Source: Atopobiaceae bacterium (GTDB lineage: Bacteria > Actinomycetota > Coriobacteriia > Coriobacteriales > Atopobiaceae). From it: 64,000 nt of DNA. The position numbers and the translations under genes are program-made. The notes below the pieces were generated by a model. The model was not told where the DNA came from. It worked only from the letters and a program-made list of their open reading frames with translations, and did no database searches. The stretch is taken from positions 1,602 through 65,601 of the forward strand of contig CADFJN010000012.1 in assembly GCA_902834555.1 (NCBI GenBank), given 5' to 3'. Every line of letters starts with the position of its first letter. Within the stretch, counting starts at the first letter, position 1. This document shows positions 7,324 to 60,960 of this stretch, in pieces.

Positions 7324-7565
7324 GCGTGCCACCCCCAGGGCTCGCCAAACAAGAAATACTGCCAGAGCAGACAGACTGCTCTTTCAGCATGGTAATGCAG
7401 TACAGGCGCGAGACCCGCACGCTCCCCCAAAGAATCGCCGTACGGGCCTCGCGCTTAGGTTGATTGTCTCGCAATTTCATTCAATTTCAATCAACTTCAG
7501 TCAAATTCGGTCAAATTGTCACGCGAAAACACAGAGACGGTACCGCGCGGATAGCAAAGCCACGT

Positions 7566-7910: not shown

Positions 7911-8019
7911 AGCGCCCCCCCTCACAGACACTCTATCCCAAGAGAGGTTGTGTCCCGCCGTCTCTCGGCAAAGTCCTGCTAGCATCGTGCGTAACCGCGC
8001 AACGTAGAGGGAGGGCAGC

Positions 8020-35729: not shown

Positions 35730-35784
35730 CGACAATCCTCCATCCAGGCGTCGACAACACCAGGCACGCCAAACCGGCGGCGCG

Positions 35785-37564: not shown

Positions 37565-39685
37565 ATGCCCAGAATCACACCAGGAAACAGGCTTTACCTG
37601 TACAAGCTTCTCTCGTCCACCCTTGGCACCAACCGCCAGGCACTGCTCTCGCGCGTTGAGGAGGTGCTGCTAGAGGACGGCATCGAGCCGCAGGACCTTG
37701 GGAAAGACGACGTCCAATCTCTTATGGAGGCGCTCTCCGAGTTCGTTCGGCTCACCGTCTTCAAGAAGGGGCGCGTCTACGCGACGGTCGTTCCCAACGA
37801 GGAGTACGACGGCTACCTCGAGCGAGCAGGGCAGTCTGGCTCTGGCAGCACGGGCGAGAAGGGCGGAAAGAGCAAGCCATGGAAGCGTCGCAAGGGCTCA
37901 CATGACCCCAAGCCGACAAAGCCACGCCACGTCGAGAAGGCCGAGGCCAAGCCGGAGCCCGTACCGGAACCGGAAGCTGCGGCCGAGCCAGAGCCGGCAT
38001 CCGCGCCGGAGCCGGAGCCTGAAAACGTAACCGTGCCGGAGCCCGAACCGGCGCCAGCACCTGCGCCGGCACCGCAGCCCTCCCTAGCCGACGAGACCCC
38101 CAAAGAGCCAAACGAGCCGCAGGTAGAAGCCACTAGAGCCGAGACCCGCGAGCAACCGGAGCCCGAGACGCCCAACGACTCTGGCATCAACCTCACCATT
38201 ACATATGACCCCTACGAGGACATGGAGGCGGACCTCGCGGCAGCTGCCCAGGCACAGCCCGAGTCTCCGGCACCCGCCACGTCGCAAGCTGCAGCACCGG
38301 CCCCCGCACCGGCCCCCATACCGGTAGCCGCCCCTGCACCCGCCCCAGCCACGCAGCCCCTCCCCCACCAGAACCTCCCCGAGCTCTTCTCGGCAGAGGT
38401 CCACTGCAAGGACGAGCTTCTCCGCGTGCTCTACCAGAAGCTCCCCATCGACGCCGACGTCACCCGCACGCTCGACGAGGACTGGCGCGTGGCCCGCTCG
38501 ACCGGGACCCTCTCGGGCACAAGGAGCCGCGTCACGTTCCCGCTCCGCTACCTCCACGAGGATGGCTCCGGCCCGGTGGAGGTCACAATCCGCCGCACGT
38601 CACGCCCCTTGTCCGGCAAGCAGTGGAGCCTCGCGTTGGTAGATGGTGACGACGGTACCGGCATGGTCCACGAGCAGGTTGGCCTAGAGGGCCTTCCTGC
38701 GGCAGACGAGGGCGCGTGGAGCGACCTCTCTGGTGCGTCGCTGCAGGGCGTGGGCACTTCCACCGTAAGCCCACTTCGCGAGTTCGCACAGTTCGCGGTC
38801 ATCGGCTCCTGGGAGCGCACGCTTGGGACGCTTGCCACCATGGCAGCGCCGGAGCACTGGAACTTCCCCGGCGAGGGCGTGGGCGGTCCCTCTCGCTATG
38901 GCATCCTGCGCGAGTACCTCACTGTGACCTTCCATCGTGCCGTTGAGCAGGGACGCATTGTCACGGCAACGGACAGCTCACTCGCTGCTTTTAACACGGG
39001 GCTGCTCACCCCCTTTGGCGAGGACGTCTACGCAGTCTTCTCGCCCAACGCCGGCGACATACCCTGGAAGCTCGACGGCTTTGCCACCGCGGGCTCGGGG
39101 GAGTTGGGCGCCCGCCTTGCGGCAACGCTTCCCGAGCTGCCGCAGCCGGCCAGCTACCTCGAGCGCGTCGAGGACGTTGTCTGCCAGCCGGGACACATGC
39201 TCATCCTTGACACCGAAGCGCTTCTGGGCGAGAAGGTCGGCCGCCTGCCGCGCGCCTTTCTCGCCGATCAGCTGGCCGGAAGCCCCGAGGCATCGCGCCT
39301 GCTGCGAGACGCCATGGACGACGGCAACGGCCGGCTGGGGCGCACCGCCTGTCGGGAGCTGGCGCGCGCCATCAAGGCAGACCCCAGCCTCTACCGCCGC
39401 ATGGCCCGCGCTCTTCAGGATGCCACGACCCTCTCGCTGCGCCTTGCACAGGCAAGCTACCGCATGGCAGCGCCGGCGTTTGATCCCGCCACTGGTACCA
39501 TGCGGCTCCTACTGCCGCTCTGCCTGGTAGACGATGGCGTGGCCGACTGCGCCATGTCGCTTGAGCTCATGCCGTCCGGTGCGTACCGTGGAGCGGCGAT
39601 CCTCTCGCTGCCGCGCGCTTATGCCTGCGCGCGCGTGGTGAGCCGAGACCAGCCCGCATGGCTCTCGCCGGAAATCGTCCTGTAG
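37565..39685 (+). CDS. Large hypothetical protein: N-terminal OST-HTH/LOTUS-like module, Pro/Glu/Ala-rich linker, C-terminal DUF3825-like domain
   Basis: 706 aa. Linker EPEPAPAPAPAPQP...PAPAPAPIPVAAPAPAP. The C-terminal half has AAFNTGLLTPFGEDVYAVFSPN and LLLPLCLVDD, which I associate with DUF3825. Confidence 0.7.
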   Translation: MPRITPGNRLYLYKLLSSTLGTNRQALLSRVEEVLLEDGIEPQDLGKDDVQSLMEALSEFVRLTVFKKGRVYATVVPNEEYDGYLERAGQSGSGSTGEKGGKSKPWKRRKGSHDPKPTKPRHVEKAEAKPEPVPEPEAAAEPEPASAPEPEPENVTVPEPEPAPAPAPAPQPSLADETPKEPNEPQVEATRAETREQPEPETPNDSGINLTITYDPYEDMEADLAAAAQAQPESPAPATSQAAAPAPAPAPIPVAAPAPAPATQPLPHQNLPELFSAEVHCKDELLRVLYQKLPIDADVTRTLDEDWRVARSTGTLSGTRSRVTFPLRYLHEDGSGPVEVTIRRTSRPLSGKQWSLALVDGDDGTGMVHEQVGLEGLPAADEGAWSDLSGASLQGVGTSTVSPLREFAQFAVIGSWERTLGTLATMAAPEHWNFPGEGVGGPSRYGILREYLTVTFHRAVEQGRIVTATDSSLAAFNTGLLTPFGEDVYAVFSPNAGDIPWKLDGFATAGSGELGARLAATLPELPQPASYLERVEDVVCQPGHMLILDTEALLGEKVGRLPRAFLADQLAGSPEASRLLRDAMDDGNGRLGRTACRELARAIKADPSLYRRMARALQDATTLSLRLAQASYRMAAPAFDPATGTMRLLLPLCLVDDGVADCAMSLELMPSGAYRGAAILSLPRAYACARVVSRDQPAWLSPEIVL

Positions 39686-40987: not shown

Positions 40988-41025
40988 GGGAGCGAGGCCA
41001 TGGCCTCGCTCCCCTATTTCTCTTT
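40988..41025 (+). terminator. Rho-independent terminator of icd
   Basis: GGGAGCGAGGCCATGGCCTCGCTCCC followed by CTATTTCTCTTT. Confidence 0.7.
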
Positions 41026-41161: not shown

Positions 41162-41992
41162 CTATCGCAGCTCGAGGTCCACGAGGGCTTCGGCAACGTC
41201 ATCCACCAGTACATCGGCGCACTCACGCACCGCCTCGGCCGCACGGTTAAAGGTGTAGGCGACATCCGCCTCGTCAAGAAGCGGCAGATCGTTGAAGGAG
41301 TCGCCAATGCCGCCAACCATGCCTAGTCCCAAACGCTCGCGTGCAATGGCAAGCCCGGCACCCTTGGAACATCCCGCAGGCACTACGTCCACAGAGTCGA
41401 GGTTCTGAAAAGCAGAAACCCTGCCCCCAAGCAACTCCCCCGCTCCGGCCACAAAACGAGCAGCGCGTTCCTGGGTACCAAACCCCAGAGAGACAACCTG
41501 CACTCCCGTGCCGTCACCGCCACGCGCCATCGTCAAAGCGTCATCAACCGAGCTCACAACCTTAAGCCGTTTGAGAAACGCCTTCGGAAGCCCGGGGATG
41601 TTTTCCCCGCCCAGCACCAGATAACCAGACCCCATCGCGATAAACGGCGGACGCGAGGTCTGTCCATACGTCGCATCCAGAAGCGCACGCACATCGTCAT
41701 CGGGAACCTCGCGCGAGAACAACGCGTTCCCCGCGCCGTCGCTTACGCAAGCTCCGCTGCTCGTAATCGCAAAATCGAAGCTCAGGTCGCCGCCCGCATC
41801 CGCGAGCACAGCGCCAAGCGGCCTGCCAGTGCAAACGCCAAAGAGACCGCCCCGCGCCCTAAACTCCTCGATTGCCCTAAGGTCACGCGGAAGGAACCGG
41901 TGCAGCGGGTGCATGCGGCCGCCAATGCCAAAGAAGAGCGTCCCGTCAAAGTCGCTCGCCATCGCTCTTCCCTCAAAGCTAGCACCCGCCAT
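41162..41992 (-). CDS. HAD-superfamily (Cof-type) phosphatase
   Basis: SDFDGTLFF (DxD motif I) and GIGDSFNDLPLL (motif IV). Confidence 0.75.
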   Translation of the reverse strand: MAGASFEGRAMASDFDGTLFFGIGGRMHPLHRFLPRDLRAIEEFRARGGLFGVCTGRPLGAVLADAGGDLSFDFAITSSGACVSDGAGNALFSREVPDDDVRALLDATYGQTSRPPFIAMGSGYLVLGGENIPGLPKAFLKRLKVVSSVDDALTMARGGDGTGVQVVSLGFGTQERAARFVAGAGELLGGRVSAFQNLDSVDVVPAGCSKGAGLAIARERLGLGMVGGIGDSFNDLPLLDEADVAYTFNRAAEAVRECADVLVDDVAEALVDLELR

Positions 41993-42134: not shown

Positions 42135-44240
42135 CTACTCCTCTGCCTTGCGTTGCTTCCAGGCCTCCTCGTTGCGCCAATCGTTCCCGTCGAGATGCCA
42201 GTTGTTGAAGTCGGAGACGTCCCCAACTATCTGATACTCAAGCAGGTCATAGTCACGCTTGCCGTCGTGCGTAAGCATACAGTAGGTTCGCAGGCGATCC
42301 GCGGGGTCATGTCGGTCCTCAAGCGCCACGTTGAACTCTCCGTAGTGGTCGAGAACGTCCTGCGAGGCACCCATACCCTTGAGCATGGTAGCCTGGAGGT
42401 CCTTGTGGCTGGCCGGCTCCTGGGAGATGGCACAAGGCGCCGCATCAGCCATCGCGTCCTGCGCGGGCTTCACAAAGATGATAGGCGACGTGGGCTCAGT
42501 GAGGGGCTCGTCCGTGAGGTACCACTCGCCATGGTCCGCGGTCACGATGATCGTGGACTGGTCGTAAACCCCAAGCTCCTTGAGCTGCCGCAGGTACTCG
42601 GAGAGGATGTGGAACGTACCGAGCGTCTGGTCCTCCAGGCTCGTGCCCTCCTCGTTGAGGTTGCCCTGCGCGTCCATTGTGTAGGGGGTATGTGTCCCCA
42701 CAAGGTGAATGAAGCGGAACGAGGCGTCCTCGCTGTTGATGGAGAGACCTCGCTCCTTCAGCTTCTGGTAGTATGCCGGGTCATTCATGACATAGGGAGT
42801 GCTTGAGGGGTCATTCTCGGCGTCACTTGAGAACATGGCGTTGTTTATTTGGTCCGTGTAATACCAGAAGAACGGCTTAAGCACCCATGGCATGTCGCGA
42901 TAGAGCGAGCACTGGTAGAGGATCTTGAGGGTACTTTGCTTGTCGAGCGCCCTCGAAGCATCAAGGGGATGCACGTTAATGGTGCGTGTTTTCGCATAAT
43001 CAAGGCTAAATGAGTCAGTATAAATGCCCATCGTGTAGCCCTGGGCAGACACATCATCTAGGAATGTGCTACCCGAGTAGAAACGGCCAAAAAAGTCGTC
43101 CCAAGCCTCCCCTGCCCTTGGATAAGAGCCCGTGAGCAGGAACGGAATCCCATATCGAGTTGGAATCATCGAGCCGGTGCTGTTCTGGTACCACGTGAAG
43201 CCCGTGAACTCGTCGAGCATCTCGGGGTAATTGTCGTAGACGGCCTTGGTTTTGAGTGAGTCAACGGTATCAACGACAAGCACAATAACATTCTTGTTCT
43301 TCGACACGTCAAACATGCCCTGCTCGGTGGTGTAAATCCTCTGGGTCTGGATGCTCGAGCCGTCCGGGGGCGAGACCCACAGGCTCACCACGCCCACCAG
43401 CTGGACAACCACGAGAACAACGCTCGCCACTGCCGCAACCGCCCTACCGGCCTTCTCACGCATAACAGCAAGGGTCACCAGAGTGGCGGCAATAACGCCC
43501 CAGATGAGCAAGTTCCCAACCATTTCCCTGGTGTACTTGCTCCAGTCGATGAGGTTGCCGTCGGCAACCGTAAGGTTGCCATTGAGAAAGAGCGTCTGCA
43601 CGTAGGACCCAATGCCAACGGCAAGGGCCAGAGCGAGAAGCACGTCAAACGCCCGCCCGCGGAACGCAGAGAGGATAAGGCCACAGACAACGCCAACGAG
43701 AAGCCCCGCCACGAGGATGAGCTGCCACATGCTGTCCAGGCCAAAGACGAGCGATGCGGAGTTAGCAGCAACGAGCTCGTAGGGAGCCACGACGAGAATC
43801 GTAAACGCATCGAACACGCAGGCGAGAAGCGCAAGCACGATGCGGCGGCGCCACGGCAGGCCCGCCGGGCGGCCCGTGGCGGCCCCGCGCGCGTTGCCGC
43901 CCGCGGCTGCAAGCGCCTCTCGCGCCGCCGCGTCGGCCGCGGCCTTGCCGGAGGGGTCGACGCGGGAGACCGCGGGCTCGGCCACGCGGCCCGCCCCCTC
44001 GTCTACGTGCAGGATCCTCATGAGGGCCTTGCGCGTGCGCCTGAAGGCCACGCCCAGCACCGCCGAGAGCGCAACCGCCACGGCGGCCAGCGCCTGGATC
44101 GTGTAGGTCATGACCGAGGGGTCCACGTACGCGAGGGCCGGTGTGGCGGGCACAAGCACCCACACGGCAGTAAGGGCAAACGCGTAGAGCGCGTCGTGGA
44201 GCGCGAGCGCCGGCGCGAGCGCATTTCTCGTGCTTCTCAA
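42135..44240 (-). CDS. LtaS/sulfatase-family (alkaline-phosphatase superfamily) polytopic membrane protein, paralog 1
   Basis: TTG start 9 nt after AGGAGG. N-terminal multi-TM region. Extracytoplasmic domain with VIVLVVDTVDS, WYQNSTGSMIPTRYG and IIVTADHGEW. Confidence 0.8.
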   Translation of the reverse strand: MRSTRNALAPALALHDALYAFALTAVWVLVPATPALAYVDPSVMTYTIQALAAVAVALSAVLGVAFRRTRKALMRILHVDEGAGRVAEPAVSRVDPSGKAAADAAAREALAAAGGNARGAATGRPAGLPWRRRIVLALLACVFDAFTILVVAPYELVAANSASLVFGLDSMWQLILVAGLLVGVVCGLILSAFRGRAFDVLLALALAVGIGSYVQTLFLNGNLTVADGNLIDWSKYTREMVGNLLIWGVIAATLVTLAVMREKAGRAVAAVASVVLVVVQLVGVVSLWVSPPDGSSIQTQRIYTTEQGMFDVSKNKNVIVLVVDTVDSLKTKAVYDNYPEMLDEFTGFTWYQNSTGSMIPTRYGIPFLLTGSYPRAGEAWDDFFGRFYSGSTFLDDVSAQGYTMGIYTDSFSLDYAKTRTINVHPLDASRALDKQSTLKILYQCSLYRDMPWVLKPFFWYYTDQINNAMFSSDAENDPSSTPYVMNDPAYYQKLKERGLSINSEDASFRFIHLVGTHTPYTMDAQGNLNEEGTSLEDQTLGTFHILSEYLRQLKELGVYDQSTIIVTADHGEWYLTDEPLTEPTSPIIFVKPAQDAMADAAPCAISQEPASHKDLQATMLKGMGASQDVLDHYGEFNVALEDRHDPADRLRTYCMLTHDGKRDYDLLEYQIVGDVSDFNNWHLDGNDWRNEEAWKQRKAEE

Positions 44241-44343: not shown

Positions 44344-46455
44344 CTAGCGCTCGTTCGTCTCCCAGGTAACGCCTGTGAGGCTCCAGGAGTTCCAATCCTC
44401 CACAGGGCCAATCACGCTGAACTGGTACATGTGCGGAGTGTAGTTCCCGTCCCACGTCGGAGCGTCAAAGGCGCGAACGCGATTCTCGTCAAAAGTGGCC
44501 GCGACGTTATACGCCGGAGTCCCATACTTTGCTACCAGTGCCTGGTCGCCGTTGGAGGCCTGGTCGATGACGGTCGCAAGCACATCGGGTGCCCAGACGG
44601 GAGTCGTGGCATCTATGGAAAGGCTCTCATGCGCAGCACCCGCAGGCTTCACGAACAGGATGGGGGACGTCGGCCTCTCGATGGGGGTGTCTGACATGAA
44701 GTCAATCCTGCCGTGGTCTGCCGTCACGATGACCGTAGTGTTGTCATACACCCCAAGCTCCTTGAGATCGTCGAGATAGGTCGAGACGATCTTGAAAGAA
44801 CCAAGGAGCTGCTGATCGTACGTGGTCTCGCCGTCAACCCGCTCTCCCTGCGCGTCCATCGTGTATGGGAAGTGCGCACCCAGCAGGTGGATGAACCGGA
44901 ACGAGCCAGTCTCTCCGTCATTGTTAATGGAGAGACCTCGTATCTTCAGCTGAGCATAGAACGAGGGGTCATCAAAGTTGTATGGAACGTCGCCAAGGTC
45001 ATCCGCTTCCTCCTTGGGGGTGGACATTCTCTGATTAAGCTCGTCGGTGTAGTACCAGAGGAAGGGTTTGAACATCCACGGGAGATCGCGGTACAAGGCG
45101 GCCTTGTACATGATCCGTACCGCACCCGTCTCGTCGAGGCCACTCATGCCACCGTCATCAAGGGGGTGGACGTTCTTAGCAAGCCCGGCGAAGGCATTCG
45201 GGTCGCCATGGGTTGTCGAGCCCGAATCCGAATAGACCCCAATGTCATATCCCAAGCCGCTGAGGTCCTTGAGGTAGGTGCTCTTGCCAACAGAAGACTT
45301 CACGTACTCTTGGAAGTCCTCGCCCTCCTGCGGGAGCTGACCGGTGAGAAGGTATGAGCAGCCATACCTCGTGGGAGCAAGAGAACCCACAGAGTTCTGG
45401 TACCAGGTGAACCCGTCGAGGGCATCGAACATCGAGGGATTGTCCGAGTACACCTCTTCCAGGTACTGTGTGTCGGTCATGTCAAGAACAATGACTACCA
45501 CGTTCTTCTTGTCGGAGACGTCGAACATACCCTGCTCTGTGTAAACGTTATCCTGGTCGTTGGGAACGGGGGCAGTGGCGGGGTTGAGCCAGATCGACGC
45601 AATGGCAACCGCCTGAATGATGATGAGAACTCCCGCAAGCGAAGCGTTCGCAAGGCGTGAGACAGAGGGCTTCCGAACTGCCGCCACAATTGCAACGGCA
45701 ATCACGGCGACCCAGATTGCAGCGCTCACGACCATCGGCTGTTTGTAGAGGCTCCAATCAACGAGGTCACCGTTGGTGATAGGAAGCGACCCGTTAAGAA
45801 ACATCGCCTGCAGATACCCGCAAAGCGTCACCGCCGCAACAAGCGAAAGAACGACATCAAAGGCGCGCCCGCGAAGCACCGAGACGACAAGCGCCAAGAC
45901 AACAGCAACGAGAAGCCCCGCGCGGACGATGGCCGGCCACACAGAGTTGAGGCCATACGTCAGGTCTGCGGTATTCGCCGCCAGCAATTCAAACGGAGCA
46001 ACAACAAAATAGGTAATTGTCAGCGAGACAGAGACCACGAGGGCGAGAAGCAGCCGCTTTGGCCACTTGACGGCCTCCCTGGGGTCACGCCTCCCCTCGC
46101 CGCGCGCGTTGCCGCCCGCGGCTGCAAGCGCATCTCGCGCCGCCGCGTCGGCCGCGGCCTTGCCGGAGGGGTCGATGCGGGAGACCGCGGGCTCGGCCAC
46201 GCGGCCCGCACCCTCGTCTACGTGCAGGATCCTCATGAGGGCCTTGCGCGTGCGCCTGAAGGCCACGCCCAGCACCGCCGAGAGCGCAACCGCCACGGCG
46301 GCCAGCGCCTGGATCGTGTAGGTCATGACCGAGGGGTCCACGTACGCGAGGGCCGGTGTGGCGGGCACAAGCACCCACACGGCAGTAAGGGCAAACGCGT
46401 AGAGCGCGTCGTGGAGCGCGAGCGCCGGCGCGAGCGCATTTCTCGTGCTTCTCAA
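44344..46455 (-). CDS. LtaS/sulfatase-family membrane protein, paralog 2
   Basis: Same architecture: VVVIVLDMTDT, WYQNSVGSLAPTRYG, VIVTADHGR. The first ~110 aa are nearly identical to paralog 1. Confidence 0.8.
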   Translation of the reverse strand: MRSTRNALAPALALHDALYAFALTAVWVLVPATPALAYVDPSVMTYTIQALAAVAVALSAVLGVAFRRTRKALMRILHVDEGAGRVAEPAVSRIDPSGKAAADAAARDALAAAGGNARGEGRRDPREAVKWPKRLLLALVVSVSLTITYFVVAPFELLAANTADLTYGLNSVWPAIVRAGLLVAVVLALVVSVLRGRAFDVVLSLVAAVTLCGYLQAMFLNGSLPITNGDLVDWSLYKQPMVVSAAIWVAVIAVAIVAAVRKPSVSRLANASLAGVLIIIQAVAIASIWLNPATAPVPNDQDNVYTEQGMFDVSDKKNVVVIVLDMTDTQYLEEVYSDNPSMFDALDGFTWYQNSVGSLAPTRYGCSYLLTGQLPQEGEDFQEYVKSSVGKSTYLKDLSGLGYDIGVYSDSGSTTHGDPNAFAGLAKNVHPLDDGGMSGLDETGAVRIMYKAALYRDLPWMFKPFLWYYTDELNQRMSTPKEEADDLGDVPYNFDDPSFYAQLKIRGLSINNDGETGSFRFIHLLGAHFPYTMDAQGERVDGETTYDQQLLGSFKIVSTYLDDLKELGVYDNTTVIVTADHGRIDFMSDTPIERPTSPILFVKPAGAAHESLSIDATTPVWAPDVLATVIDQASNGDQALVAKYGTPAYNVAATFDENRVRAFDAPTWDGNYTPHMYQFSVIGPVEDWNSWSLTGVTWETNER

Positions 46456-46485: not shown

Positions 46486-48618
46486 TCAGCGCCAGATGCG
46501 CTTGGCGTCATCGTCGGTGATGATCCAGTCATTGCCATCAAGACGCCAGTTTGCGAAGTCCTGGGAGTCGCCCGAGATCTCGTACTCGCGCCAGCTGGTA
46601 TCCAGTTTTCCGTTGCTCGTCGTCATGAGGTAGTAGCGTAAGCGGTCCGCAGGGTCATTGCGGTCCTCGATGGCCTGGTTGAACTCGCCGTAGTGGTCAA
46701 GGACCTCCTGCGAGGCACCCATTCCCTTGAGCATCGTTGCTTGAAGGTCATAGTGGCTCACGGGCTGCTGCGAAATCTGGCACGGAACCAAGTCTGCCTC
46801 GGCAGGCTGTGCCGGCTTCACAAAGATGATGGGCGTCGAGACGCCTGCAATCTCATCGGGCGTGATGTACCAGGTGCCGTGGTCAGCGGTGATGACCACC
46901 GTGGTGCTGTCGTAGAGCCCCAGGCGCTTGAGCTCGTCGAGGTAGGTGCGCACAATCTTGAACGCCCCCACCATCTGGGACTCCCAGTCGCTGGACTCTG
47001 CGACCTTGTTGCCATCGGCATCCATGATGTAGGGCCAGTGTGTACCGTCAAGGTGGATGAAGCGGAATGAGGCGTCCTCGTTGTTGATAGAAAGCCCGCT
47101 CTCCTTGAGCTTCGCAAAGTAAGCCGGATCGTCCATGGCGTAAGGGGTGAGGTCCGGGGACGACCCACTCGTGCCGCTTACCATTCCCTGGTTGATCTGG
47201 TCCGTATAGAACCAGAAGAATGGCTTGGCAATCCACGGCATGTCGCGATACAGCGCGCACTGGTACAGAATGCGAAGCGTCCCCTGCCAATCAAGGGCGC
47301 TCTTCGCAACGTCCGAGGTGCTCTCGAAGTTCTCGGCGTGCTGCCCCAGGTATTCGCTCCAGCCGTCTATCCAGTCCGCAGAGTCAGAGTAGATGCCCGT
47401 GGTATAGCTCTGAGCTGCAACATCATCCAAGAAGTAGCTGTCCGAGTACATGGACGAGAGGAAATCCGCCGCGTCCTCCCCTGCTTGTGGCCGCATGCCC
47501 GTAAGCAGGGAGGGGATGCCATAGCGCGTAGGAATCATAGACCCCGTACTGTTCTGGTACCAGGTAAAGCCATCCAAACCGTCAAACATGTTTGGGTTGT
47601 CGGCATATGCTTTCTTGGCATCTGCGGTGTCGGTCATGTCAAGCACAAAGCACACCACGTTCTTCTTGCCCGAGACGTCAAAGAGGCCCTTCTCGGTGAT
47701 GGTGATGGACTCTGGCTCGGATTCCGCCTTGGTCACAATTCCAACAACGCCGGCAACCTGCACAACGATGAGAGCGGCACTCAGTGCTGCGGCAGCGGCC
47801 CTCTCCACCCGCGGGCGCTTGACTGCAAGAACAACAAGGGCGGTGACGACCGTCGCCCATACAAGCAGGCTGATACCAGTGACGGACGCAAACTGGGTCC
47901 AGTCCACAAGATTGCCATCGGCGACGGGCAGGCTCGAGTTCATGGAGAGCACCTGCACGTAGGCACTCACGCCAAGAGCAACGATGACGGCGAGAATCAC
48001 CTCAAAGGCGCGACCGCGGAACGCCGAGAGCACAAAGCCGCTGGCAACGGCCAGGAGAAGACCAGCCACGACCACGATCTGCCACACCTGACGGACCCCA
48101 AAGAGCAGGCTGTCGGAGCTGCCGGCAACAAGCTCGAGCGGAGCCACCACAAACACCGTGAGGACGAGAAAGACGCAGGCGAGAAGCGCAAGCACGATCC
48201 GGCGGCGCCAGGGGATGCCCGCCCGGCGGCCCGTGGCGGCCCCGCGCGCGTTGCCGCCCGCGGCTGCAAGCGCATCTCGCGCCGCCGCGTCGGCCGCGGC
48301 CTTGCCGGAGGGGTCGATGCGGGAGACCGCGGGCTCGGCCACGCGGCCCGCACCCTCGTCTACGTGCAGGATCCTCATGAGGGCCTTGCGCGTGCGCCTG
48401 AAGGCCACGCCCAGCACCGCCGAGAGCGCAACCGCCACGGCGGCCAGCGCCTGGATCGTGTAGGTCATGACCGAGGGGTCCACGTACGCGAGGGCCGGCG
48501 TGGCCATCGCTGTGAGCAGACAGGCACTTATCGCAGCAAGGCCAAGGACGTCCCACGCAAGGACCAGCAGGCGCCCAACAATGCGGTGCGCACCCTTTTG
48601 GGAGCGGCTAGTCATCAT
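46486..48618 (-). CDS. LtaS/sulfatase-family membrane protein, paralog 3
   Basis: Start taken at MMTSRSQKG (48618) by alignment with paralogs 1 and 2; the longer track ORF to 48894 overlaps the upstream gene. VVCFVLDMTDT, WYQNSTGSMIPTRYG, VVITADHGTW. Confidence 0.8.
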   Translation of the reverse strand: MMTSRSQKGAHRIVGRLLVLAWDVLGLAAISACLLTAMATPALAYVDPSVMTYTIQALAAVAVALSAVLGVAFRRTRKALMRILHVDEGAGRVAEPAVSRIDPSGKAAADAAARDALAAAGGNARGAATGRRAGIPWRRRIVLALLACVFLVLTVFVVAPLELVAGSSDSLLFGVRQVWQIVVVAGLLLAVASGFVLSAFRGRAFEVILAVIVALGVSAYVQVLSMNSSLPVADGNLVDWTQFASVTGISLLVWATVVTALVVLAVKRPRVERAAAAALSAALIVVQVAGVVGIVTKAESEPESITITEKGLFDVSGKKNVVCFVLDMTDTADAKKAYADNPNMFDGLDGFTWYQNSTGSMIPTRYGIPSLLTGMRPQAGEDAADFLSSMYSDSYFLDDVAAQSYTTGIYSDSADWIDGWSEYLGQHAENFESTSDVAKSALDWQGTLRILYQCALYRDMPWIAKPFFWFYTDQINQGMVSGTSGSSPDLTPYAMDDPAYFAKLKESGLSINNEDASFRFIHLDGTHWPYIMDADGNKVAESSDWESQMVGAFKIVRTYLDELKRLGLYDSTTVVITADHGTWYITPDEIAGVSTPIIFVKPAQPAEADLVPCQISQQPVSHYDLQATMLKGMGASQEVLDHYGEFNQAIEDRNDPADRLRYYLMTTSNGKLDTSWREYEISGDSQDFANWRLDGNDWIITDDDAKRIWR

Positions 48619-50554
48619 TGTCGCCCTGAACCCCCGTCCCAAACGCACCAGCCGCGGTAATGTCCTTGCCCTCCTGCTTTGCGAGAATCTCGCCGAGGAT
48701 GTACTCGCCCGCGGCCTCGCCGCCGTGGCCAAGGTTGTAGATGAAGCCGTCACGAATCTGGCGAATCCTGTCGTTCCAGGACGAGGAGTTCGTGACCATG
48801 TCGTCGATGACGTCCTCGAGCTCGGAGAGGTCCTTGGGGTCAAGCGAGCGGCCAATCTGGTTGCGCAGCGTGATGTCGGTGGGCGTAATGCCAACCTGCT
48901 CGTAGTCCGGGTTGATGACCTTCATGGGGGTGTCGATGAAGAGCGACGGCTTGAGCGTGGTGAACGAGAACTCCTCGGCAATCGTCGACCAGTCGGTAAT
49001 CAGCACATCGGACTCGAGGATGGAGCCGTGGCCGGAGAAGTCCGCCTCGATCGTGAGCTCGTCGGAGCTCACCTTGGAGTAGCGTTCGACAAGCGCCTCC
49101 CAGCGAGGCCGGTAGCGCTTCACGTACTCGGGGTGGGGACGAAGAATCACGTGGTAGCCGTGGCCAAGCAGGCGGCTGAGCATGTCGTCGATGCAGGTGT
49201 CGAGGATGTTGTCCGTGTTCCACGAGGGCGCGATGAGGATGATGGGGCGCTCGTGCTTCTCGTGAGGCATCTTCTCGTAGTCTGCCATCTCGCGGTCGAG
49301 AAGGTCGTAGCCAATCTCGGGGACCTTCTTCTTCTGCGTGTGATAGGCCTTCTCCATGGCGCGGATCTCTGCCTTCTGGTGAGGGCCAACGCACATTATG
49401 GTGTCGTAGTTGTCGTACTCCTGCTTTGTGCCCGTCATGTGCATCGAAGTCATGTGGTGGCACATGTAGATGTACTCGATGTCCTTGCGGATGTAGGAGC
49501 GCTTGATGTAGTACACGTCGAGCGCGCCAAGCGAGGTCACCACCACGTCGGCGTCCATCTTCATCATGAGGGTGATGAGGCGCTTCTGGTCGAGGAAGTA
49601 CGGGATGAGGCGCGGTTCGCGCTTGGCGATGTCAAAGACCTGGTCGTTGGGGTCGCTCGTAAGGTAGTGGATGCGCACGTCGGAGTTGTTGAGCAGCCAC
49701 TCTATGGCGCCCTGGAAGTACTTGTAGAAGCCCGAGCTCTCGGAGTAGAACACCAGGTGCTTGCCGTCCACCTTGAAGAAGCGCTTGTAGTCCGCCTTGG
49801 CGCGGCGGGCCAGCGGGTCTGGCTGGTACCACTTGCGATCGCCCTTGGTGGCCTCCTCGATGGCGTTGAACTCGTCGCGTGCGGCATTGAGGTCCTCGTA
49901 GTCGATGTAGTCGCGCGGCTTCACAATCACGTTGCACAGCGCCTGCACCGCAATGGAGAGAAGGTTGGAGCACACCCAGTAGAAGGCCATGCCGCACACC
50001 ACGTAGAAGCCCAGGAAGAGCGAAAGGGCGATGGAGAGGCCATTGGTCATGTTCTTCTCGGCACGGGACTGCTCGCGCTGCAGAGGGTTGATGCGGTTGG
50101 AGGCCCAGCCCATGATCACAGCCGAGAGGCCCGCGAACAGTGGCATGATGAGCGACGCGCCGCCGTTCTCGATGGGCACGAGGCCCAGAAACTCGGTGCC
50201 GGAGGCGCCGGAGTCCGTGATGGAGTGGATGACGTCGACCAGGCCAAAGAGGATGACCACCTGGATGGCCAGCGGGATGAGCGAGAGCAGGGCATGGTAG
50301 TGCTTCTCGTGATAGAGCTCGTTCTGCTTCTCCTCGATGGTCTCGCGGTCGCCATAGTAGCGGCACTTGATGCGGAATAGCTCGGGCATGAGCTGCACCA
50401 TCACGATGCTGTTCTTCTGGCACCATACCGAGAGCGGCATGAGGATGACCTTGGAGAACAGGGTGAAGAGAAAGATTGCCGCCCACCAGCTACCGGTGAG
50501 GTCGTAGGCCGGCTGCACGATAAGCGAGAAGAAATTCGCTAGCGCCTCGAACAT
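48608..50554 (-). CDS. Fusion protein: YidC/Oxa1-like membrane insertase domain + TagB/TagF-type CDP-glycerol glycerophosphotransferase domain
   Basis: N-terminus: WWAAIFLFTLFSKVILMPLSVWCQKNSIVMVQLMPELFRIKCRYYGD...YWVCSNLLSIAVQ (YidC-like, 5 TM). C-terminus: IILIAPSWN, LRPHPEY, DVLITDWSTIAEEF (Glyphos_transf-like). Confidence 0.75.
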   Translation of the reverse strand: MFEALANFFSLIVQPAYDLTGSWWAAIFLFTLFSKVILMPLSVWCQKNSIVMVQLMPELFRIKCRYYGDRETIEEKQNELYHEKHYHALLSLIPLAIQVVILFGLVDVIHSITDSGASGTEFLGLVPIENGGASLIMPLFAGLSAVIMGWASNRINPLQREQSRAEKNMTNGLSIALSLFLGFYVVCGMAFYWVCSNLLSIAVQALCNVIVKPRDYIDYEDLNAARDEFNAIEEATKGDRKWYQPDPLARRAKADYKRFFKVDGKHLVFYSESSGFYKYFQGAIEWLLNNSDVRIHYLTSDPNDQVFDIAKREPRLIPYFLDQKRLITLMMKMDADVVVTSLGALDVYYIKRSYIRKDIEYIYMCHHMTSMHMTGTKQEYDNYDTIMCVGPHQKAEIRAMEKAYHTQKKKVPEIGYDLLDREMADYEKMPHEKHERPIILIAPSWNTDNILDTCIDDMLSRLLGHGYHVILRPHPEYVKRYRPRWEALVERYSKVSSDELTIEADFSGHGSILESDVLITDWSTIAEEFSFTTLKPSLFIDTPMKVINPDYEQVGITPTDITLRNQIGRSLDPKDLSELEDVIDDMVTNSSSWNDRIRQIRDGFIYNLGHGGEAAGEYILGEILAKQEGKDITAAGAFGTGVQGDNDD

Positions 50555-52026: not shown

Positions 52027-53187
52027 CTAGAGTGCCACGCGGTAGATCTCCACGATGTCGTCGGCCGTGAGGGGCACGAAGCTACCCTTGCTGCCAGCGG
52101 CGGCCTTCTCGGCCATCACACGGAAGTTCTTCTCGTCATCGATGCCAACGGCACGCAGGTTGGCCGGCATGCCCATGGTCACAAAGAAGAACTCGCGAGT
52201 CTTGGCGATGGCGTCGCGTGCCACGGACATGTCGTCGGTGCCCTGCAGGCCCCAGACGTTGCGGCCGTACGTCGCGAACATGGGCGCGGTCTTGACAGAG
52301 AGCACGTGCTCCATCCACGCGGGCGTGAGGATGGCCAGACCCTCGCCGTGGGTGATGTCATAGAAGGCAGAGAGCTCGTGCTCCATGGGGTGCACGCACC
52401 AGGCGTTGGCGGCACCAGCGTTGACCAGGCCGTTAATCGCGTGCGAGGCAGCCCACATGAGGTTGGCTCGGGCATCGTAGTTATCCGGCTCCTCAAGCGC
52501 GATGGGCCCGTAGTGAATCATGGTGCGGAGAAGCCCCTCGGCCATGCGCTGCTGGACATAGGCGCCCGGCTCCATGGTGAAGTAGTTCTCGAAGGTGTGG
52601 CTCATCATGTCGGCCGTGCCGGCAGCGGTCTGGCGACGCGAGACGGTGAAGGTGTAGGTGGGGTCGAGCACGGACATGGTGGGCTTTAGGCACTCGGCGG
52701 CGGTGCCCCACTTCTCGTTCTTGGTCATGTCCGATATCACGGCGAACGGGTCCATCTCCGAGCCGGTCGCGGAGAGCGTGAGCACCGAGAAGATGGGAAG
52801 CGCGGCGGTGATCTTCTCGGGATGAATCACCAGGTCCCAGGGGTCACCGTCATAGCGGGCGCCGGCCGCGACAACCTTGGCGCAGTCGATCGTGGAGCCA
52901 CCGCCGATGGCAAGGACCATGTCGACGCCCTTGGCCTTGCAGGTCTCCACGCCGCGGCGAACGGTCTCGATGCGAGGGTTGGGCTCCACGCCCGAGAGCT
53001 CCTCGACCTCCACGCCGGCCTGGCCGAGGATGCGCAGGGCCTCATCGTAGATGCCGTTGCGCTTGATTGAGCCGCCGCCATAGCAGAGCAGGGCCTTCTT
53101 GCCATACTGGGCAAGCTCAGACAGGTGCGAGATCTGGCCCTTGCCAAAGTGGATGGTGGTGGGGACATGGAACGTGAAGTTGTACAT
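52027..53187 (-). CDS. Iron-containing (group III) alcohol dehydrogenase, YqhD/BdhA-like
   Basis: Internal ATG 53187 (MYNFTFHVPTTIHFGKGQISHL...). LAIGGGSTIDCAK and a C-terminal His cluster. The upstream 187 codons of the track ORF are spurious. Confidence 0.88.
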   Translation of the reverse strand: MYNFTFHVPTTIHFGKGQISHLSELAQYGKKALLCYGGGSIKRNGIYDEALRILGQAGVEVEELSGVEPNPRIETVRRGVETCKAKGVDMVLAIGGGSTIDCAKVVAAGARYDGDPWDLVIHPEKITAALPIFSVLTLSATGSEMDPFAVISDMTKNEKWGTAAECLKPTMSVLDPTYTFTVSRRQTAAGTADMMSHTFENYFTMEPGAYVQQRMAEGLLRTMIHYGPIALEEPDNYDARANLMWAASHAINGLVNAGAANAWCVHPMEHELSAFYDITHGEGLAILTPAWMEHVLSVKTAPMFATYGRNVWGLQGTDDMSVARDAIAKTREFFFVTMGMPANLRAVGIDDEKNFRVMAEKAAAGSKGSFVPLTADDIVEIYRVAL

Positions 53188-53275
53188 GCTGTTTCCCTTC
53201 TCGTGCCGGTAGGCGCCCGACCGCAGGCGCCGCGTTGGTCCCATGGTAGCGCGTGCGGAAGGACTGCCGTGGTTA

Positions 53276-53370
53276 GCGCCTCTCGCTGCCGGCTGGCTCG
53301 TTCCCTCTCGCCTCTCGCTGACGGCTGGCCCGTTCCTTCTCGCCTCTCGCTGACGGCTGGCCCGTTCCCT
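53276..53370. repeat. About 38-bp tandem repeat x about 2.5 (TCTCGCCTCTCGCTGACGGCTGGCCCGTTCC[CT])
   Basis: tctcgctgccggctggctcgttccc tctcgcctctcgctgacggctggcccgttcct tctcgcctctcgctgacggctggcccgttccc. Confidence 0.8.
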
Positions 53371-53390
53371 CCCCCGTCCCTCGGATGCCG

Positions 53391-53469
53391 AATTATTGCG
53401 CGAAATTGTTTGATATTTGCTTCTCAACTGGGATAACATCATCTCTGCCAGAAATATCGCGCAATAATT
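53391..53469. repeat. AT-rich 79-bp TIR element, copy 2 of 3 (perfect 13-bp termini AATTATTGCGCGA / TCGCGCAATAATT)
   Basis: aattattgcgcgaaattgtttgatatttgcttctcaactgggataacatcatctctgccagaaatatcgcgcaataatt. It contains TTGATA-18 nt-TAACAT, a plausible outward promoter toward the following gene. Confidence 0.75.
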
Positions 53470-53494
53470 GCCCTCAGTCAGGCTGGAGATGCCC

Positions 53495-54712
53495 ATGCGC
53501 CTCACGCTCGATCGCCTTAGTGCACTTGCAGCCATCAGATCCATCCGTTGTGGTACGGCTCCCGATGTGCAAAGTGGCCTCGCATCGCTGAGAAGAACCG
53601 GCATCGCCGCCCCGGAACTCCCAGAGGGCAGGAAGCGGTGGAGTGCAAGCTGCATCGACCTCTCCGAGCTGGGGTTAGTGCGTGACACGCGAGGAAGCCA
53701 CCCTATTGAGATTGCTGTACCAAGCGAGCGCGACCGAATCCGCTCCAAGGCCTTCTCGTCAATCCTTCACACCGCCCCGCTTCCAAAGGGCGCATTCATA
53801 GACGCTGGGCAGGGCTTTCGCATTGCCTCGCCCGAGCTCGTCTTTGTAGAGATGGGTGCCGTGATGCAGCCAGAAATCCAGGCACTTCTCGGCTACGAGC
53901 TCACGGGAAGCTTCTCACGAAACCCCTCAGACCCTCGCGGAGGCACCGTTGCCTACGGCATTCCCCCTGCAACAAGTGTCGAGAAAATCGAGAAGTTCCT
54001 CTCGCAGTGCGAGGGTAATGCAGGCGTTGCCCAATCAAGGCAGGTCATTGAGTATGTAGCCAATAACGCTTGGTCTCCCGCTGAAGCGGTTATCGCTGCC
54101 CTTATGGCCCTGCCGCTGGAGTACCTTGGGTACGGTATGGGGCGCTTGGTGCTCAACAACCGCCAAACCGCAGCGGACGAGCTGGCCCGCGCTGGAGCGC
54201 ACAGCTCACGCGTGCCGGACATCCTTGTTCCCGGAACATGCGTGGGCATCAACTACGACAGCTTCTACCACCTTGACCTGGACAGCGTCATCGAGGCGGC
54301 GCGCGCGTGCGCCCTGGCTCCAAATGACGAGGCGGCGGCGGTCACCCTTGAGAATGCACGGAGGTCGGTGCGGGATAAGGTCCTTGATGACCTGCGCCGA
54401 AACAGAGAACTGGCTGCTCAGGGGCTTGTGGTTCTACCGGCTACGAGTGAAGACCTCTACCGGAAGGGCGGGTTCGACGAGCTGATGCTCGAGGTGTTCC
54501 GCACAATCGAGCTGCTGTCTGGCAAGGACATGGCAGAAAGCCGGCGCGCGCTGGCATCGCACGCCGTCTGCGAGCGCAGGCAAACTCTCATCTGGTCGCT
54601 TCTCGCTTGGGAGCAAGGACGCAGCTATGCGCGCGAGCAGGTCGAACGCGAGCGGCGAGGGATCCTGAGGATTAAGAATCCCCAGATCATCGAGGTCGAC
54701 ATGGTTATTTAA
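53495..54712 (+). CDS. Hypothetical protein with C-terminal DUF559/Vsr-like (restriction-endonuclease-fold) region
   Basis: IASPELVFVEMG...GYELTGSF...SPAEAVIAALMALPLEYLGYG...RVPDILVPGTCVGINYDSFYHLD...RRNRELAAQGLVVL. The start is ambiguous (TTG 53468, ATG 53489, ATG 53495). Confidence 0.6.
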   Translation: MRLTLDRLSALAAIRSIRCGTAPDVQSGLASLRRTGIAAPELPEGRKRWSASCIDLSELGLVRDTRGSHPIEIAVPSERDRIRSKAFSSILHTAPLPKGAFIDAGQGFRIASPELVFVEMGAVMQPEIQALLGYELTGSFSRNPSDPRGGTVAYGIPPATSVEKIEKFLSQCEGNAGVAQSRQVIEYVANNAWSPAEAVIAALMALPLEYLGYGMGRLVLNNRQTAADELARAGAHSSRVPDILVPGTCVGINYDSFYHLDLDSVIEAARACALAPNDEAAAVTLENARRSVRDKVLDDLRRNRELAAQGLVVLPATSEDLYRKGGFDELMLEVFRTIELLSGKDMAESRRALASHAVCERRQTLIWSLLAWEQGRSYAREQVERERRGILRIKNPQIIEVDMVI

Positions 54713-59523: not shown

Positions 59524-60960
59524 CTAGTACTTCACCCAGGCGTTGGGGTCGCCAGTCTCCTTGGCGAGGCGATCGGACAGTCTGCCCTTGGGGCTGGCGG
59601 ACCAGATGGGCGCGGACTTCTCGGCCCATGCCGCAGCGGCTGCCTTCGTCTTGCTCTCCAGCTCGTCGACGTCCTCGGGGTGCACGTAGTCCGTGGACTT
59701 GGCGCCAGTCTCATGCACCATCTCCGAGAGCTTGCCGGGGTTGTCCAGCAGCGGGCACGGCCTCAGCATGTTGGAGTTGAACGGCTGGTGCGCCTGGTAG
59801 CTCTTGAAGAGCGGGCTCTTGTAGCACTCGAGCAGGCTCTTCTCGCGGATGTTGGAGTCGGAGTAGTGGATGAACGCGCAGGGCTCCACGTCGCCGGCGG
59901 CGTTGATGTGCATGTAACGACGAGCGCCGGCGATGCAGCCGCCCGTATACTCGCCGTCGTTCCAGAAGTCGGCGAAGAAGATGGGCACGTTGTTGCGCCA
60001 GTTCTTGCGCACCTTATCGTACATGCCGGCGCGCTGCTCGGCGGTGGCGAGAAGCTCCACGGGAGCGCCCAGGCCAACGGGCATGTAGGTGAAGATCCAC
60101 GCAAAGAGGACGCCCTTGTCCACCAGGAACTGGATGTACTCGTCGCTCGTGATGGAGTCGTAGTTTGCGCTGGTGTAGCACATGGACGCGCCAAACGGCA
60201 GCTTGCGCTCGCGCAGGATGTCCATGGCGTGCGTCACGCGCGCAAAGGTGCCCTTGCCACGGCGGGAGTCCGTTGCCTCCTCGAAGCCCTCGATGGAGAA
60301 GGCCGGCATGAAGTTCTTCACGCGGAGCATCTCGTCGGCGAACTTCTCGTCCACCAGCGTGCCGTTGGTGAAGGCCGAGAAGAAGCAGTCAGGGTGCTTC
60401 TCGCACAGGCGGATGAGGTCGTTCTTGCGCACCATGGGCTCGCCGCCGGTGAAGAGGTAGATGTAGGTGCCCAGGTCCTTGCCCTGCGTGATGATGGAGT
60501 CAAGCTCCTCGAAGGTGAGGTCCTTGTGGTTGGCGTTGGTGTAGTTGGCCGCCCAGCAGCCGTTGCAGTGCAGGTTGCAACGGGTGGTGGGGTCCATGAG
60601 GATGGCCCAGGGGCAATTGCAGCCCTCGGTGTCGTTAACCTCGCGCTGGCGAGCGCCGCCAATGGTCACCGAGTTCACGAAGAAGTTGTGCACGAAGGTC
60701 TTGACGACGTCCTTGTCCACGTTGTTGATGATGTTGTCGACCAGGCGACGCCAGTTGTTGGTGGGGTCCTTCATGTAGCCCATGACCATGTTGAAGAGCC
60801 TGAGCTGGGCGTCGTTGATGGAGTCGCCGGAGCCGGCAAACTTGTTAATGAGAGACTCGACCTTGGGCAGGTTGCCGTCGAAATCGTCGTAGAGCATGTT
60901 GACGCCCTGGTCAACAGCGATGCCGATGGCCTTGGCCTTGATGGACGTAAACGCGGGCAT
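59524..60960 (-). CDS. Radical SAM enzyme with about 110-aa N-terminal extension and Cys-rich (SPASM/twitch-like) C-terminal region; function unknown
   Basis: Strong RBS GAAGGAGAGG. CNLHCNGCW (CxxxCxxC), FTGGEP, later GGCIAGARRYMHINAAGDVEPCAF...LRPCPLLDNP. Confidence 0.85.
   Translation of the reverse strand: MPAFTSIKAKAIGIAVDQGVNMLYDDFDGNLPKVESLINKFAGSGDSINDAQLRLFNMVMGYMKDPTNNWRRLVDNIINNVDKDVVKTFVHNFFVNSVTIGGARQREVNDTEGCNCPWAILMDPTTRCNLHCNGCWAANYTNANHKDLTFEELDSIITQGKDLGTYIYLFTGGEPMVRKNDLIRLCEKHPDCFFSAFTNGTLVDEKFADEMLRVKNFMPAFSIEGFEEATDSRRGKGTFARVTHAMDILRERKLPFGASMCYTSANYDSITSDEYIQFLVDKGVLFAWIFTYMPVGLGAPVELLATAEQRAGMYDKVRKNWRNNVPIFFADFWNDGEYTGGCIAGARRYMHINAAGDVEPCAFIHYSDSNIREKSLLECYKSPLFKSYQAHQPFNSNMLRPCPLLDNPGKLSEMVHETGAKSTDYVHPEDVDELESKTKAAAAAWAEKSAPIWSASPKGRLSDRLAKETGDPNAWVKY

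Follow-up and report, generated by a model that had tools for sequence, protein, structure and literature searches.

In this study, we analysed a 64-kb window, i.e. the whole stretch of 64,000 nucleotides from contig CADFJN010000012.1 of an Atopobiaceae bacterium (assembly GCA_902834555.1), with a focus on a minus-strand gene at 48608..50554 and the operon which it heads. The gene encodes a single protein of 648 amino acids (aa) in which a membrane domain of the YidC/Oxa1 fold is joined to a phosphotransferase domain of the TagF/TarL type, and it is conserved in Coriobacteriia of the gut and the mouth, with hundreds of members carrying it. Three paralogous genes for LtaS-like membrane proteins, here called partners A, B and C, follow immediately downstream. 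The following features were located, with positions counted from the first nucleotide (nt) of the window:

48608..50554, minus strand: YidC-TagF fusion gene, 648 aa, first gene of the minus-strand operon
49910..50554, minus strand: YidC/Oxa1-fold membrane domain of the fusion protein (residues 1-215), with five transmembrane (TM) helices and a cytoplasmic C1 hairpin (about residues 46-84)
49769..49909, minus strand: linker (residues 216-262) leading from TM5 to the enzyme domain, with the cytoplasmic helices 219-236 and 249-261 in the AlphaFold2 model
48635..49768, minus strand: cytoplasmic TagF/TarL-type phosphotransferase domain with GT-B fold (residues 263-640)
46486..48618, minus strand: partner A, 710 aa, LtaS/EptA/PbgA-type; the gene was also called in an identical contig
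44344..46455, minus strand: partner B, 703 aa, paralogue of partner A (48% identity) with weak Sulfatase/LtaS matches
42135..44240, minus strand: partner C, 701 aa, paralogue of partner A (61% identity)
48242..48541, 46100-46399 and 43885-44184, minus strand: three copies of a 300-nt repeat, detected by a repeat search, which encodes the N-terminal TM-hairpin module of the partners
41162..41992, minus strand: Cof-type HAD-IIB phosphatase (Pfam Hydrolase_3, TIGR00099)

The fusion gene and its spread

The fusion gene starts with an ATG at 50554, with a GGGAG Shine-Dalgarno sequence 8 nt on its 5' side, and ends with a TAG at 48608-48610. Its GC fractions at the three codon positions (GC1/GC2/GC3) are 0.56/0.35/0.89. 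An earlier sequence-only reading of this DNA had described one 648-aa open reading frame (ORF) with coding-type GC3 bias here, and both the coordinates and the bias proved right; the coding strand is the minus strand, and the plus-strand frame over the same interval contains many stops. A 637-aa ORF on the plus strand (48467-50380), antisense to the fusion gene, was rejected as a shadow ORF in view of the GC3 of the fusion gene. It is uninterrupted, has no family match and shows the composition of shadow ORFs in DNA of 63% GC.

The ATG of partner A (48616-48618) lies within the 3' end of the fusion gene, with an overlap of 11 nt that includes the stop codon. The phosphatase gene is located on the same strand 142 nt after partner C and possibly closes the operon, an assignment that is uncertain; a perfect hairpin (40988-41013) lies on its 3' side. 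No ABC, Wzx or MurJ-type exporter is encoded in the operon. With respect to this context, the sequence-only reading had correctly stated that a TagGH-type or Wzx-type exporter is absent from the operon, and none was found among the annotated ORFs of the entire window either; the three LtaS-like genes immediately downstream had been missed.

The identical 648-aa protein was called on eight independent metagenome contigs. A word-indexed search of 5.8 billion proteins returned 6929 matches, of which the best 120 were examined: nearly all of these are 630-750 aa long with a query coverage of 96-100%, and 115 of the 120 bear both precomputed Pfam domains. Source names of the matches are, for example, 'membrane protein insertase YidC' or '60 kDa inner membrane insertion protein', and proteins of Eggerthellaceae and of Lancefieldella parvula are included. 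By scanning one genome per species, a relative of the fusion was found to be encoded in at least 577 GTDB species genomes. The hosts are mostly Atopobiaceae, Eggerthellaceae (Eggerthella, Gordonibacter, Raoultibacter, Slackia and Ellagibacter) and Coriobacteriaceae, with a few Bacillota from the Christensenellaceae and Acutalibacteraceae. At the fusion locus, the window is 98% identical to Tractidigestivibacter montrealensis and Olsenella spp. Full-text literature searches, phosphonate papers included, yielded no published account of the YidC-TagF architecture, in agreement with the earlier remark that no characterised protein was known to join the two families.

The trivial explanation for such a protein would be an artefact, namely an indel or a misassembly that joined two genes, and an indel at the junction had indeed been named as a concern by the sequence-only reading. 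Considering the eight identical contigs, the nearly always full-length best matches, the at least 577 species genomes, closed ones among them, and the confidently modelled linker, we attach practically no weight to this explanation. Three further observations were made on the gene and its surroundings. In an Atopobium metagenome-assembled genome (MAG), the fusion gene is apparently frameshifted, with two overlapping ORF matches (locus L083, 9941-11811). One Eggerthellaceae MAG has two separate fusion genes on different contigs (L037 and L050). Metagenome contigs with the fusion locus break at the 300-nt repeat.

An AlphaFold2 model of the fusion protein, calculated from 99 sequences, reached a mean predicted local distance difference test score (pLDDT) of 95.2 and a predicted template-modelling score (pTM) of 0.86. 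The model consists of TM1 with a helical hairpin (23-83), four more TM helices (88-210), the two linker helices and an alternating beta/alpha GT-B domain (263-640), and in Foldseek comparisons with the PDB it matched solved structures of both TagF-like polymerases and YidC. In the linker, the least conserved part of the protein (36% mean identity), the pLDDT is above 90. Neither a signal peptide nor a lipobox was found in the fusion protein, as had already been noticed for the lipoprotein signal.

The YidC-fold and TagF-like domains

The N-terminal part, which had been read as a YidC core with five hydrophobic segments, matches 60KD_IMP (PF02096) with residues 23-208 (E=4.7e-27; 95.4 bits; gathering score 35), thereby covering profile positions 1-162 of 163. 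Its five hydrophobic segments lie at approximately 23-45, 85-114, 131-152, 169-190 and 190-211, and the helices of the model extend over 23-37/39-65, 70-83, 88-114, 132-155, 164-184 and 187-210. The modelled domain superposes on Bacillus halodurans YidC (3wo7) with a TM-score of 0.69, normalised to the target, and a root-mean-square deviation of 3.2 Å; E. coli YidC (6al2) was also matched. In a phmmer search against the PDB, K35 (nt 50450-50452) aligned with the arginine in the TM1 groove of B. halodurans YidC2 (R72) and E. coli YidC (R366), so that the basic TM1 residue pointed out earlier is indeed at the position of the groove arginine. Among 34 diverse family members, this position is occupied by lysine in 31 and by arginine in 3, a conservative substitution.

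Further conserved polar residues are Q98, N156/Q159/Q162 and Y192-W193-N197; of these, Q98, Y192, W193 and N197 hardly vary at all, and the same is true of the N-P-L-Q-R-E-Q motif of the cytoplasmic C2 loop. The profile match over the whole core, the five-TM fold with its hairpin and the positive charge in TM1 place the domain in the YidC/Oxa1/Alb3 family. Among members that are 36-80% identical overall, the YidC domain has a mean pairwise identity of 43%, compared to 42-49% in the enzyme halves, and the complete YidC core including the C1 hairpin is kept in every member. Since the domain is conserved as much as the enzyme halves and its groove residues are kept, it is not decaying.

Variants with additional segments were also seen. 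In proteins of about 690 aa (P0130, P0135 and others), the outside loop that connects TM2 with TM3 of the YidC core is extended by an insertion of about 65 residues (A2 columns 117-183), which does not occur in the Coriobacteriia proteins. P0127 (943 aa), P0129 (833 aa) and P0124 (885 aa) carry an extra N-terminal region of 200-320 residues, located after a single TM helix and before the YidC core; this region has no Pfam family match and is distinct from the LtaS-like partner.

The names chosen by annotators, the retained core fold and the charged groove residue would fit a housekeeping YidC in which an accessory enzyme domain replaces the basic ribosome-binding tail. The scores and the gene context argue against this. 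The PF02096 score of 95 bits compares with 151 bits for a canonical YidC, the TIGR03592 score (yidC_oxa1_cterm, NCBIfam) of 83.4 is marginally under the cutoff of 84.3, and the NCBIfam equivalog models for YidC remain far below their cutoffs, with best scores of 57 versus 479 and 53 versus 282. The gene is part of an envelope-enzyme operon and lacks the rpmH-rnpA-yidD-yidC-jag context; in Pfam scans, no rnpA, yidD or jag was found among the annotated genes of the window, and a search with hidden Markov models (HMMs) found no second YidC in it. In a Christensenellaceae MAG (L086), a canonical yidC, whose 335-aa product scores 151 bits on PF02096, and behind it a jag gene (Jag_N, KH, R3H) are located at 6622-8670 on the minus strand, 1.3 kb upstream of the fusion gene. 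Because this pair coexists with it, the fusion gene is an extra paralogue in L086; direct coexistence of both genes was seen only in this Bacillota locus. Taking into account also the MAG with two fusion genes, we consider a housekeeping function of the fusion very unlikely.

The C-terminal part matches Glyphos_transf (PF04464) with residues 374-537 (E=2.8e-9; 36.9 bits; gathering score 22.1). A whole-protein phmmer search against the PDB returned YidC chains only and no TagF; TarL (8va1, E=8e-7) and Cps3D (8qoy, E=9e-7) came up when a profile built on the C-terminal domain was used instead. The TagB/TagF hallmarks reported by the sequence-only reading were recovered in the profile search: IAPSW (441-445, with APSW at 442-445), RPHP (472-475) and TDWS (520-523) align with APTF/APTW, (K/R)xHP (K-M-H-P) and SDYSS/TDYSS of TarL 8va1 and Cps3D 8qoy. 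The top Foldseek matches were Cps3D (8qoy, 3.5e-11), Bcs3 (8a0m/8a0c) and TarL (8va1, 4.3e-8), with generic GT-B enzymes behind them. All 99 aligned sequences have a histidine at two positions, H366 (nt 49457-49459) and H474 (nt 49133-49135). H474 aligns with the histidine of the TarL 'MHP' motif, and H366 is found at the position in the N-terminal half expected of the catalytic base (TagF H444/TarL H300), an assignment made by position only.

By family profile and GT-B fold, the domain is a member of the TagF/TarL group. The teichoic-acid gene context of this group is lacking, as tagO, tagA, tagD and tagGH were not found in the 64-kb window. The domain is part of a distinct TagF-like subfamily, and neither this subfamily nor the YidC-TagF architecture is covered by an NCBIfam model.

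The LtaS-like partners and the gene neighbourhoods

The partners are composed of an N-terminal TM hairpin, a cytoplasmic low-complexity linker, a five-TM bundle and an outside domain of the alkaline-phosphatase (AlkP) superfamily, i.e. seven TM helices (2+5) precede the AlkP-type domain. A profile of the partner family found LtaS of Staphylococcus aureus (2w5q, E=2e-7) and also LtaS of Listeria (4uoo), with the active-site motifs H-x-P-Y/F and DHG aligned and the first metal-ligand position aligned weakly. Invariant residues of the family are D326, D329, T363, H521, H526, D578 and H579, of which T363 is presumably the equivalent of LtaS T300. An AlphaFold2 model of partner A reached a pLDDT of 84, and its closest Foldseek matches were PbgA (6xlp), MCR-1 (9nww) and LtaS (4uor/2w5q). 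The architecture of LtaS, a five-TM bundle plus an extracellular AlkP domain with the Thr/Asp/His set, is present; the curated thresholds were missed (NF053595 18.7 versus a cutoff of 970; PF00884 22.8-24.8 versus a gathering score of 25), and the partner is therefore too remote for an LtaS orthologue. Because the active-site motifs are invariant and aligned with those of LtaS and the model lies near PbgA, MCR-1 and LtaS, the partner is predicted to be a catalytically intact, outward-facing phospho-group transferase of the LtaS/EptA type.

The three copies of the 300-nt repeat are 91-99% identical at the DNA level. As the remainder of the paralogues is just 48-61% identical at the protein level, this suggests localised gene conversion. 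The encoded TM hairpin contains a motif, AYVDPSVMTYTIQ (AYVDPSVMTYTIQ...RRTRK), that is invariant in the Coriobacteriia partners and resembles a small YidC-type client. The YidC domain could hence be a private insertase or chaperone for the LtaS-like partners, with the TagF-like enzyme carried along in the complex. YidC paralogues with specialised clients such as SpoIIIJ and YqjG are known, and both the overlap of the partner A start with the fusion gene stop and the near identity of the hairpin DNA among the three paralogues would be in line with such a function. It would leave the universal fusion to a TagF-like enzyme without a reason, however, and neither the Bacillota-type partners nor P0134 have the N-terminal hairpin module. 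In addition, proteins with the domain order partner-YidC-TagF (see below) have the partner made before YidC, so that insertion in cis is hard to picture. We therefore regard a private insertase as improbable.

For the analysis of synteny, 80 species loci were sampled, 68 of which were informative in having at least 600 bp beyond the fusion gene. Of these 68 loci, 59 have a partner directly downstream of the fusion and 4 have one at another place in the locus, and in 5 it was undetected; the number of partner copies per locus ranges from 1 to 3. Domain architectures were surveyed among the best 150 cluster representatives at 50% identity. Among these, 61 bear the fusion, 45 as YidC-TagF, eight as YidC-TagF-partner and eight as partner-YidC-TagF. 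As two domain orders exist, fusion with the partner arose more than once. A tri-domain protein of 1361 aa is encoded in the closed genome of Raoultibacter timonensis and in about ten further assemblies.

The topology is consistent in all arrangements. With the N-out/C-in orientation of YidC, the TagF-like domain is inside. In the order YidC-TagF-partner, five or seven TM helices, thus an odd number, lie between the TagF-like and the AlkP-type domain. Where the order is partner-YidC-TagF, the AlkP-type domain is outside and immediately precedes TM1 of YidC, a helix that starts from the outer face of the membrane. Even when interpreted with the greatest caution, the conserved gene pair and the repeated joining of all three modules in one chain provide solid Rosetta-stone evidence that three well-known families have entered a new functional partnership. 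A Sulfatase-family gene next to a standalone TagF-like gene in L090 did not match the partner-family HMM and was not counted as support.

Genes for nucleotide-activated head groups adjoin the fusion or its relatives in other genomes. An HTH-NTP_transferase gene (LicC-like, 298 aa) directly adjoins the fusion gene in L001 and L006, and in about 20 of 86 loci a gene for a LicC-LicA fusion (NTP_transferase joined to choline kinase), for an HTH-NTP_transferase or for each of the two is found no more than 10 kb from the fusion gene. LicD does not appear in the Pfam lists of the lic-bearing loci, for which no systematic LicD check was made. L001 also has EutH and a choline-binding amidase. Genes for a cytidylyltransferase-phosphoenolpyruvate (PEP) mutase, a phosphonopyruvate decarboxylase and an iron-containing alcohol dehydrogenase (Fe-ADH), a set that constitutes a pathway for nucleotide-activated phosphonates, adjoin the fusion in L051, L081, L082 and L086, and adjoin standalone TagF-like relatives in L091 and L092. 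The positions are as follows:

L001 3534-5309 and 8979-9875; L006 7358-8254: LicC-LicA fusion and/or HTH-NTP_transferase genes
L051 14166-17728; L082 11868-16183; L086 11847-13916; L091 2803-6427; L092 3621-4922: phosphonate-gene neighbourhoods

Since relatives adjoin licC/licA or PEP-mutase-cytidylyltransferase genes, the donor may be a CMP-linked head group other than CDP-glycerol. The TagF-like subfamily probably transfers small CMP-linked head groups that vary by lineage, and it need not be a poly(glycerol-phosphate) polymerase; transfer of a single unit is as likely as polymerisation. It is likewise a candidate for the missing transferase that would act on CMP-activated phosphonates.

In the window itself, tblastn searches for LicC/LicA, PntC-Ppm and Ppd were negative, and Pfam scans of the other large ORFs revealed housekeeping genes only. 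Synteny with the fusion-partner module was seen for the genes of a GDPD glycerophosphodiester phosphodiesterase and of a DUF3825 protein, both in the window (34797-35879, minus strand, and 37565-39685, plus strand) and in Lancefieldella parvula (L004, 14357-17624), which gives a weak hint at glycerol-phosphate chemistry. The window and L. parvula further share a ZnuA/ABC-3 transporter and a TrmB-like methyltransferase. The Fe-ADH gene upstream of the operon (52027-53748) was considered as a linked glycerol-1-phosphate or phosphonoacetaldehyde reductase and rejected: it was judged unrelated because it is YqhD-like (NF011717, 322 bits), just 28% identical to the Fe-ADH of the phosphonate clusters, and separated by a divergently transcribed PFK gene. 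Elsewhere in the window, there is a gene for a 446-aa serpin (PF00079, 254 bits; 29073-30413, plus strand), a family uncommon in bacteria. A radical-SAM/SPASM protein (59524-60960, minus strand), a surface Ig-like polysaccharide deacetylase (15517-16452, minus strand) and a 415-aa GT2 glycosyltransferase (17085-18332, plus strand) are also encoded, none of which adjoins the operon.

Proposed function and comparison with known systems

On the basis of what the domains are, the invariant residues at the presumed catalytic positions, the coupling of the genes, the recurrent fusion and the consistent topology, we propose a conserved three-module machine for envelope modification, in which a phospho-head group would be transferred inside, pass the membrane along the YidC groove and serve an LtaS-like transfer outside. 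We hold this proposal tentatively, with a confidence slightly short of even. In the first step, the TagF-like domain would use a CMP-linked donor in the cytoplasm to place a phospho- or phosphono-head group onto a membrane-embedded lipid acceptor, which may be a glycolipid or a lipid-linked primer. The donor would be CDP-glycerol by default in the Atopobiaceae host, and CDP-choline, CDP-ethanolamine or a CMP-phosphonate where licC/licA or ppm-pntC adjoin. The YidC-fold domain would keep the enzyme at the bilayer, and its hydrophilic groove with K35 may let the anionic head group slide to the outer leaflet in a scramblase-like manner. Outside, the LtaS-like partner or partners would use the lipid as acceptor or donor, whereby a lipoteichoic-acid-like polymer or a wall glycan could be built or decorated. 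Three paralogous partners would allow primase- and synthase-type roles as for the LtaS paralogues of Listeria and Bacillus.

That a YidC groove may move such a product across the membrane, an idea already put forward by the sequence-only reading, is supported indirectly by E. coli YidC, which scrambles glycerophospholipids in vitro, and by B. subtilis MisCB and other Oxa1-family members, for which scrambling was seen in silico (PMC11047089). We infer the donor, the acceptor lipid and the transport, and several points weigh against the proposal. Scrambling by YidC is known for ordinary phospholipids only. No cytidylyltransferase was found in the 64-kb window by Pfam scans or by tblastn searches that included TagD-like proteins. 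The PF04464 match covers just profile positions 126-289 of 367, i.e. the C-terminal Rossmann half. Together with the lic and phosphonate neighbours, this partial match also qualifies the earlier assignment as a poly(glycerol-phosphate) polymerase, of which the TagF-type fold stands, while polymerisation with CDP-glycerol as donor says more than the data support. Two Bacillota loci (L082 and L086) have the fusion with no LtaS-like partner within 10 kb; the partner is thus not obligatory. Finally, standalone relatives of the TagF-like domain without a YidC domain exist, one of them adjoining an ABC ATPase gene, and the TagF-like chemistry is therefore independent of YidC.

The standalone relatives also bear on a simpler explanation, in which the YidC-fold domain is an anchor or scaffold only that docks the LtaS-like partner, with translocation either carried out by an unlinked transporter or unneeded. 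TagF of Staphylococcus epidermidis was reportedly described by Lovering et al. in 2010 as a peripheral membrane enzyme, an MFS gene and an EamA gene are located 11-21 kb away in the window, and the pTM of 0.86 is compatible with a rigid scaffold. A passive tether would not be expected, however, to keep the buried TM1 lysine or arginine, Q98 and the Y-W-x-x-x-N motif, nor to be as conserved as the catalytic domain with the full core and C1 hairpin in all members. A mere anchor thus seems unlikely to us, although it is an explanation to be reckoned with.

Coriobacteriia and some Bacillota might have co-opted the YidC/Oxa1 fold, which is not known to be other than a protein insertase, as a dedicated translocator of lipid head groups in a pathway so far unrecognised, working in a TagF-like/YidC/LtaS-like machine that is sometimes a single polypeptide; we see this as possible, if somewhat doubtful. 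If the three-module machine exists, this would be the first physiological role of an Oxa1-superfamily fold in moving a lipid-linked envelope intermediate, a superfamily for which so far only in-vitro scrambling of bulk phospholipids is on record. The machine would also be a candidate for how Actinomycetota without a recognisable LtaS make polymers of the lipoteichoic-acid type, and for Actinomycetota that lack LtaS and LicD it could provide the missing route to such polymers or to a surface decorated with phosphocholine or phosphonate. Little is known about the envelope chemistry and the immune signalling of the abundant Coriobacteriia of the human gut and mouth, and a surface-polymer locus common to Eggerthella, Gordonibacter, Slackia, Lancefieldella and Olsenella/Tractidigestivibacter would thereby come into view.

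Compared to YidC, SpoIIIJ and Oxa1, the fusion protein has the same five-TM core, cytoplasmic hairpin, basic groove residue in TM1, Y/F-W-x-x-x-N in TM5 and N-out/C-in orientation. It differs in having lysine for arginine, in lacking a lipoprotein signal and a basic ribosome-binding tail, in the 430-residue enzyme domain that follows TM5, in its location outside an rnpA-yidC-jag context and in its lower profile scores. With TagF/TarL and with Cps3D/Bcs3, it shares a GT-B-like fold and the motifs AP(S/T)W, (R/K)xHP and TD(W/Y)S, and two invariant histidines are found at presumed catalytic positions; the use of a CMP-linked donor is implied. The domain is just 13-14% identical to the solved members. 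Unlike TagF and TarL, which associate with the membrane by amphipathic helices, it is membrane-integral via the YidC fold, and its neighbourhood is without tagO, tagA, tagD and tagGH, with relatives linked to lic or phosphonate genes instead.

In the lipoteichoic acid pathway of S. aureus, YpfP makes the lipid anchor, LtaA flips it, and the extracellular LtaS with its five TM helices extends the polymer. The proposed logic of an enzyme inside, a flipper in the membrane and an LtaS-type enzyme outside would match this order, and the partner shares the LtaS active-site motifs. In contrast, the inside enzyme is TagF-like here and not a YpfP-type GT-B glycosyltransferase, the candidate flippase has a YidC fold in place of that of the major facilitator superfamily (MFS), and the partner is remote from LtaS (E=2e-7 by profile) with an extra N-terminal hairpin. 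EptA/MCR-1 and PbgA/YejM, the top Foldseek matches of the partner model, likewise combine a five-TM bundle with an outside AlkP-type domain; the partner differs in keeping the Thr/Asp/His catalytic set and in its added N-terminal TM hairpin and cytoplasmic linker. MprF is a lysyl-phosphatidylglycerol synthase fused to its own flippase. It resembles the fusion as one polypeptide with a cytoplasmic lipid-modifying enzyme and a TM domain moving the lipid outward, the latter being a proposal for the YidC fold, whereas folds and chemistry are unrelated. A similar logic is also found in three-component systems for lipid-carrier modification. The fusion-partner system combines three familiar families in a way for which no published or curated description was found.

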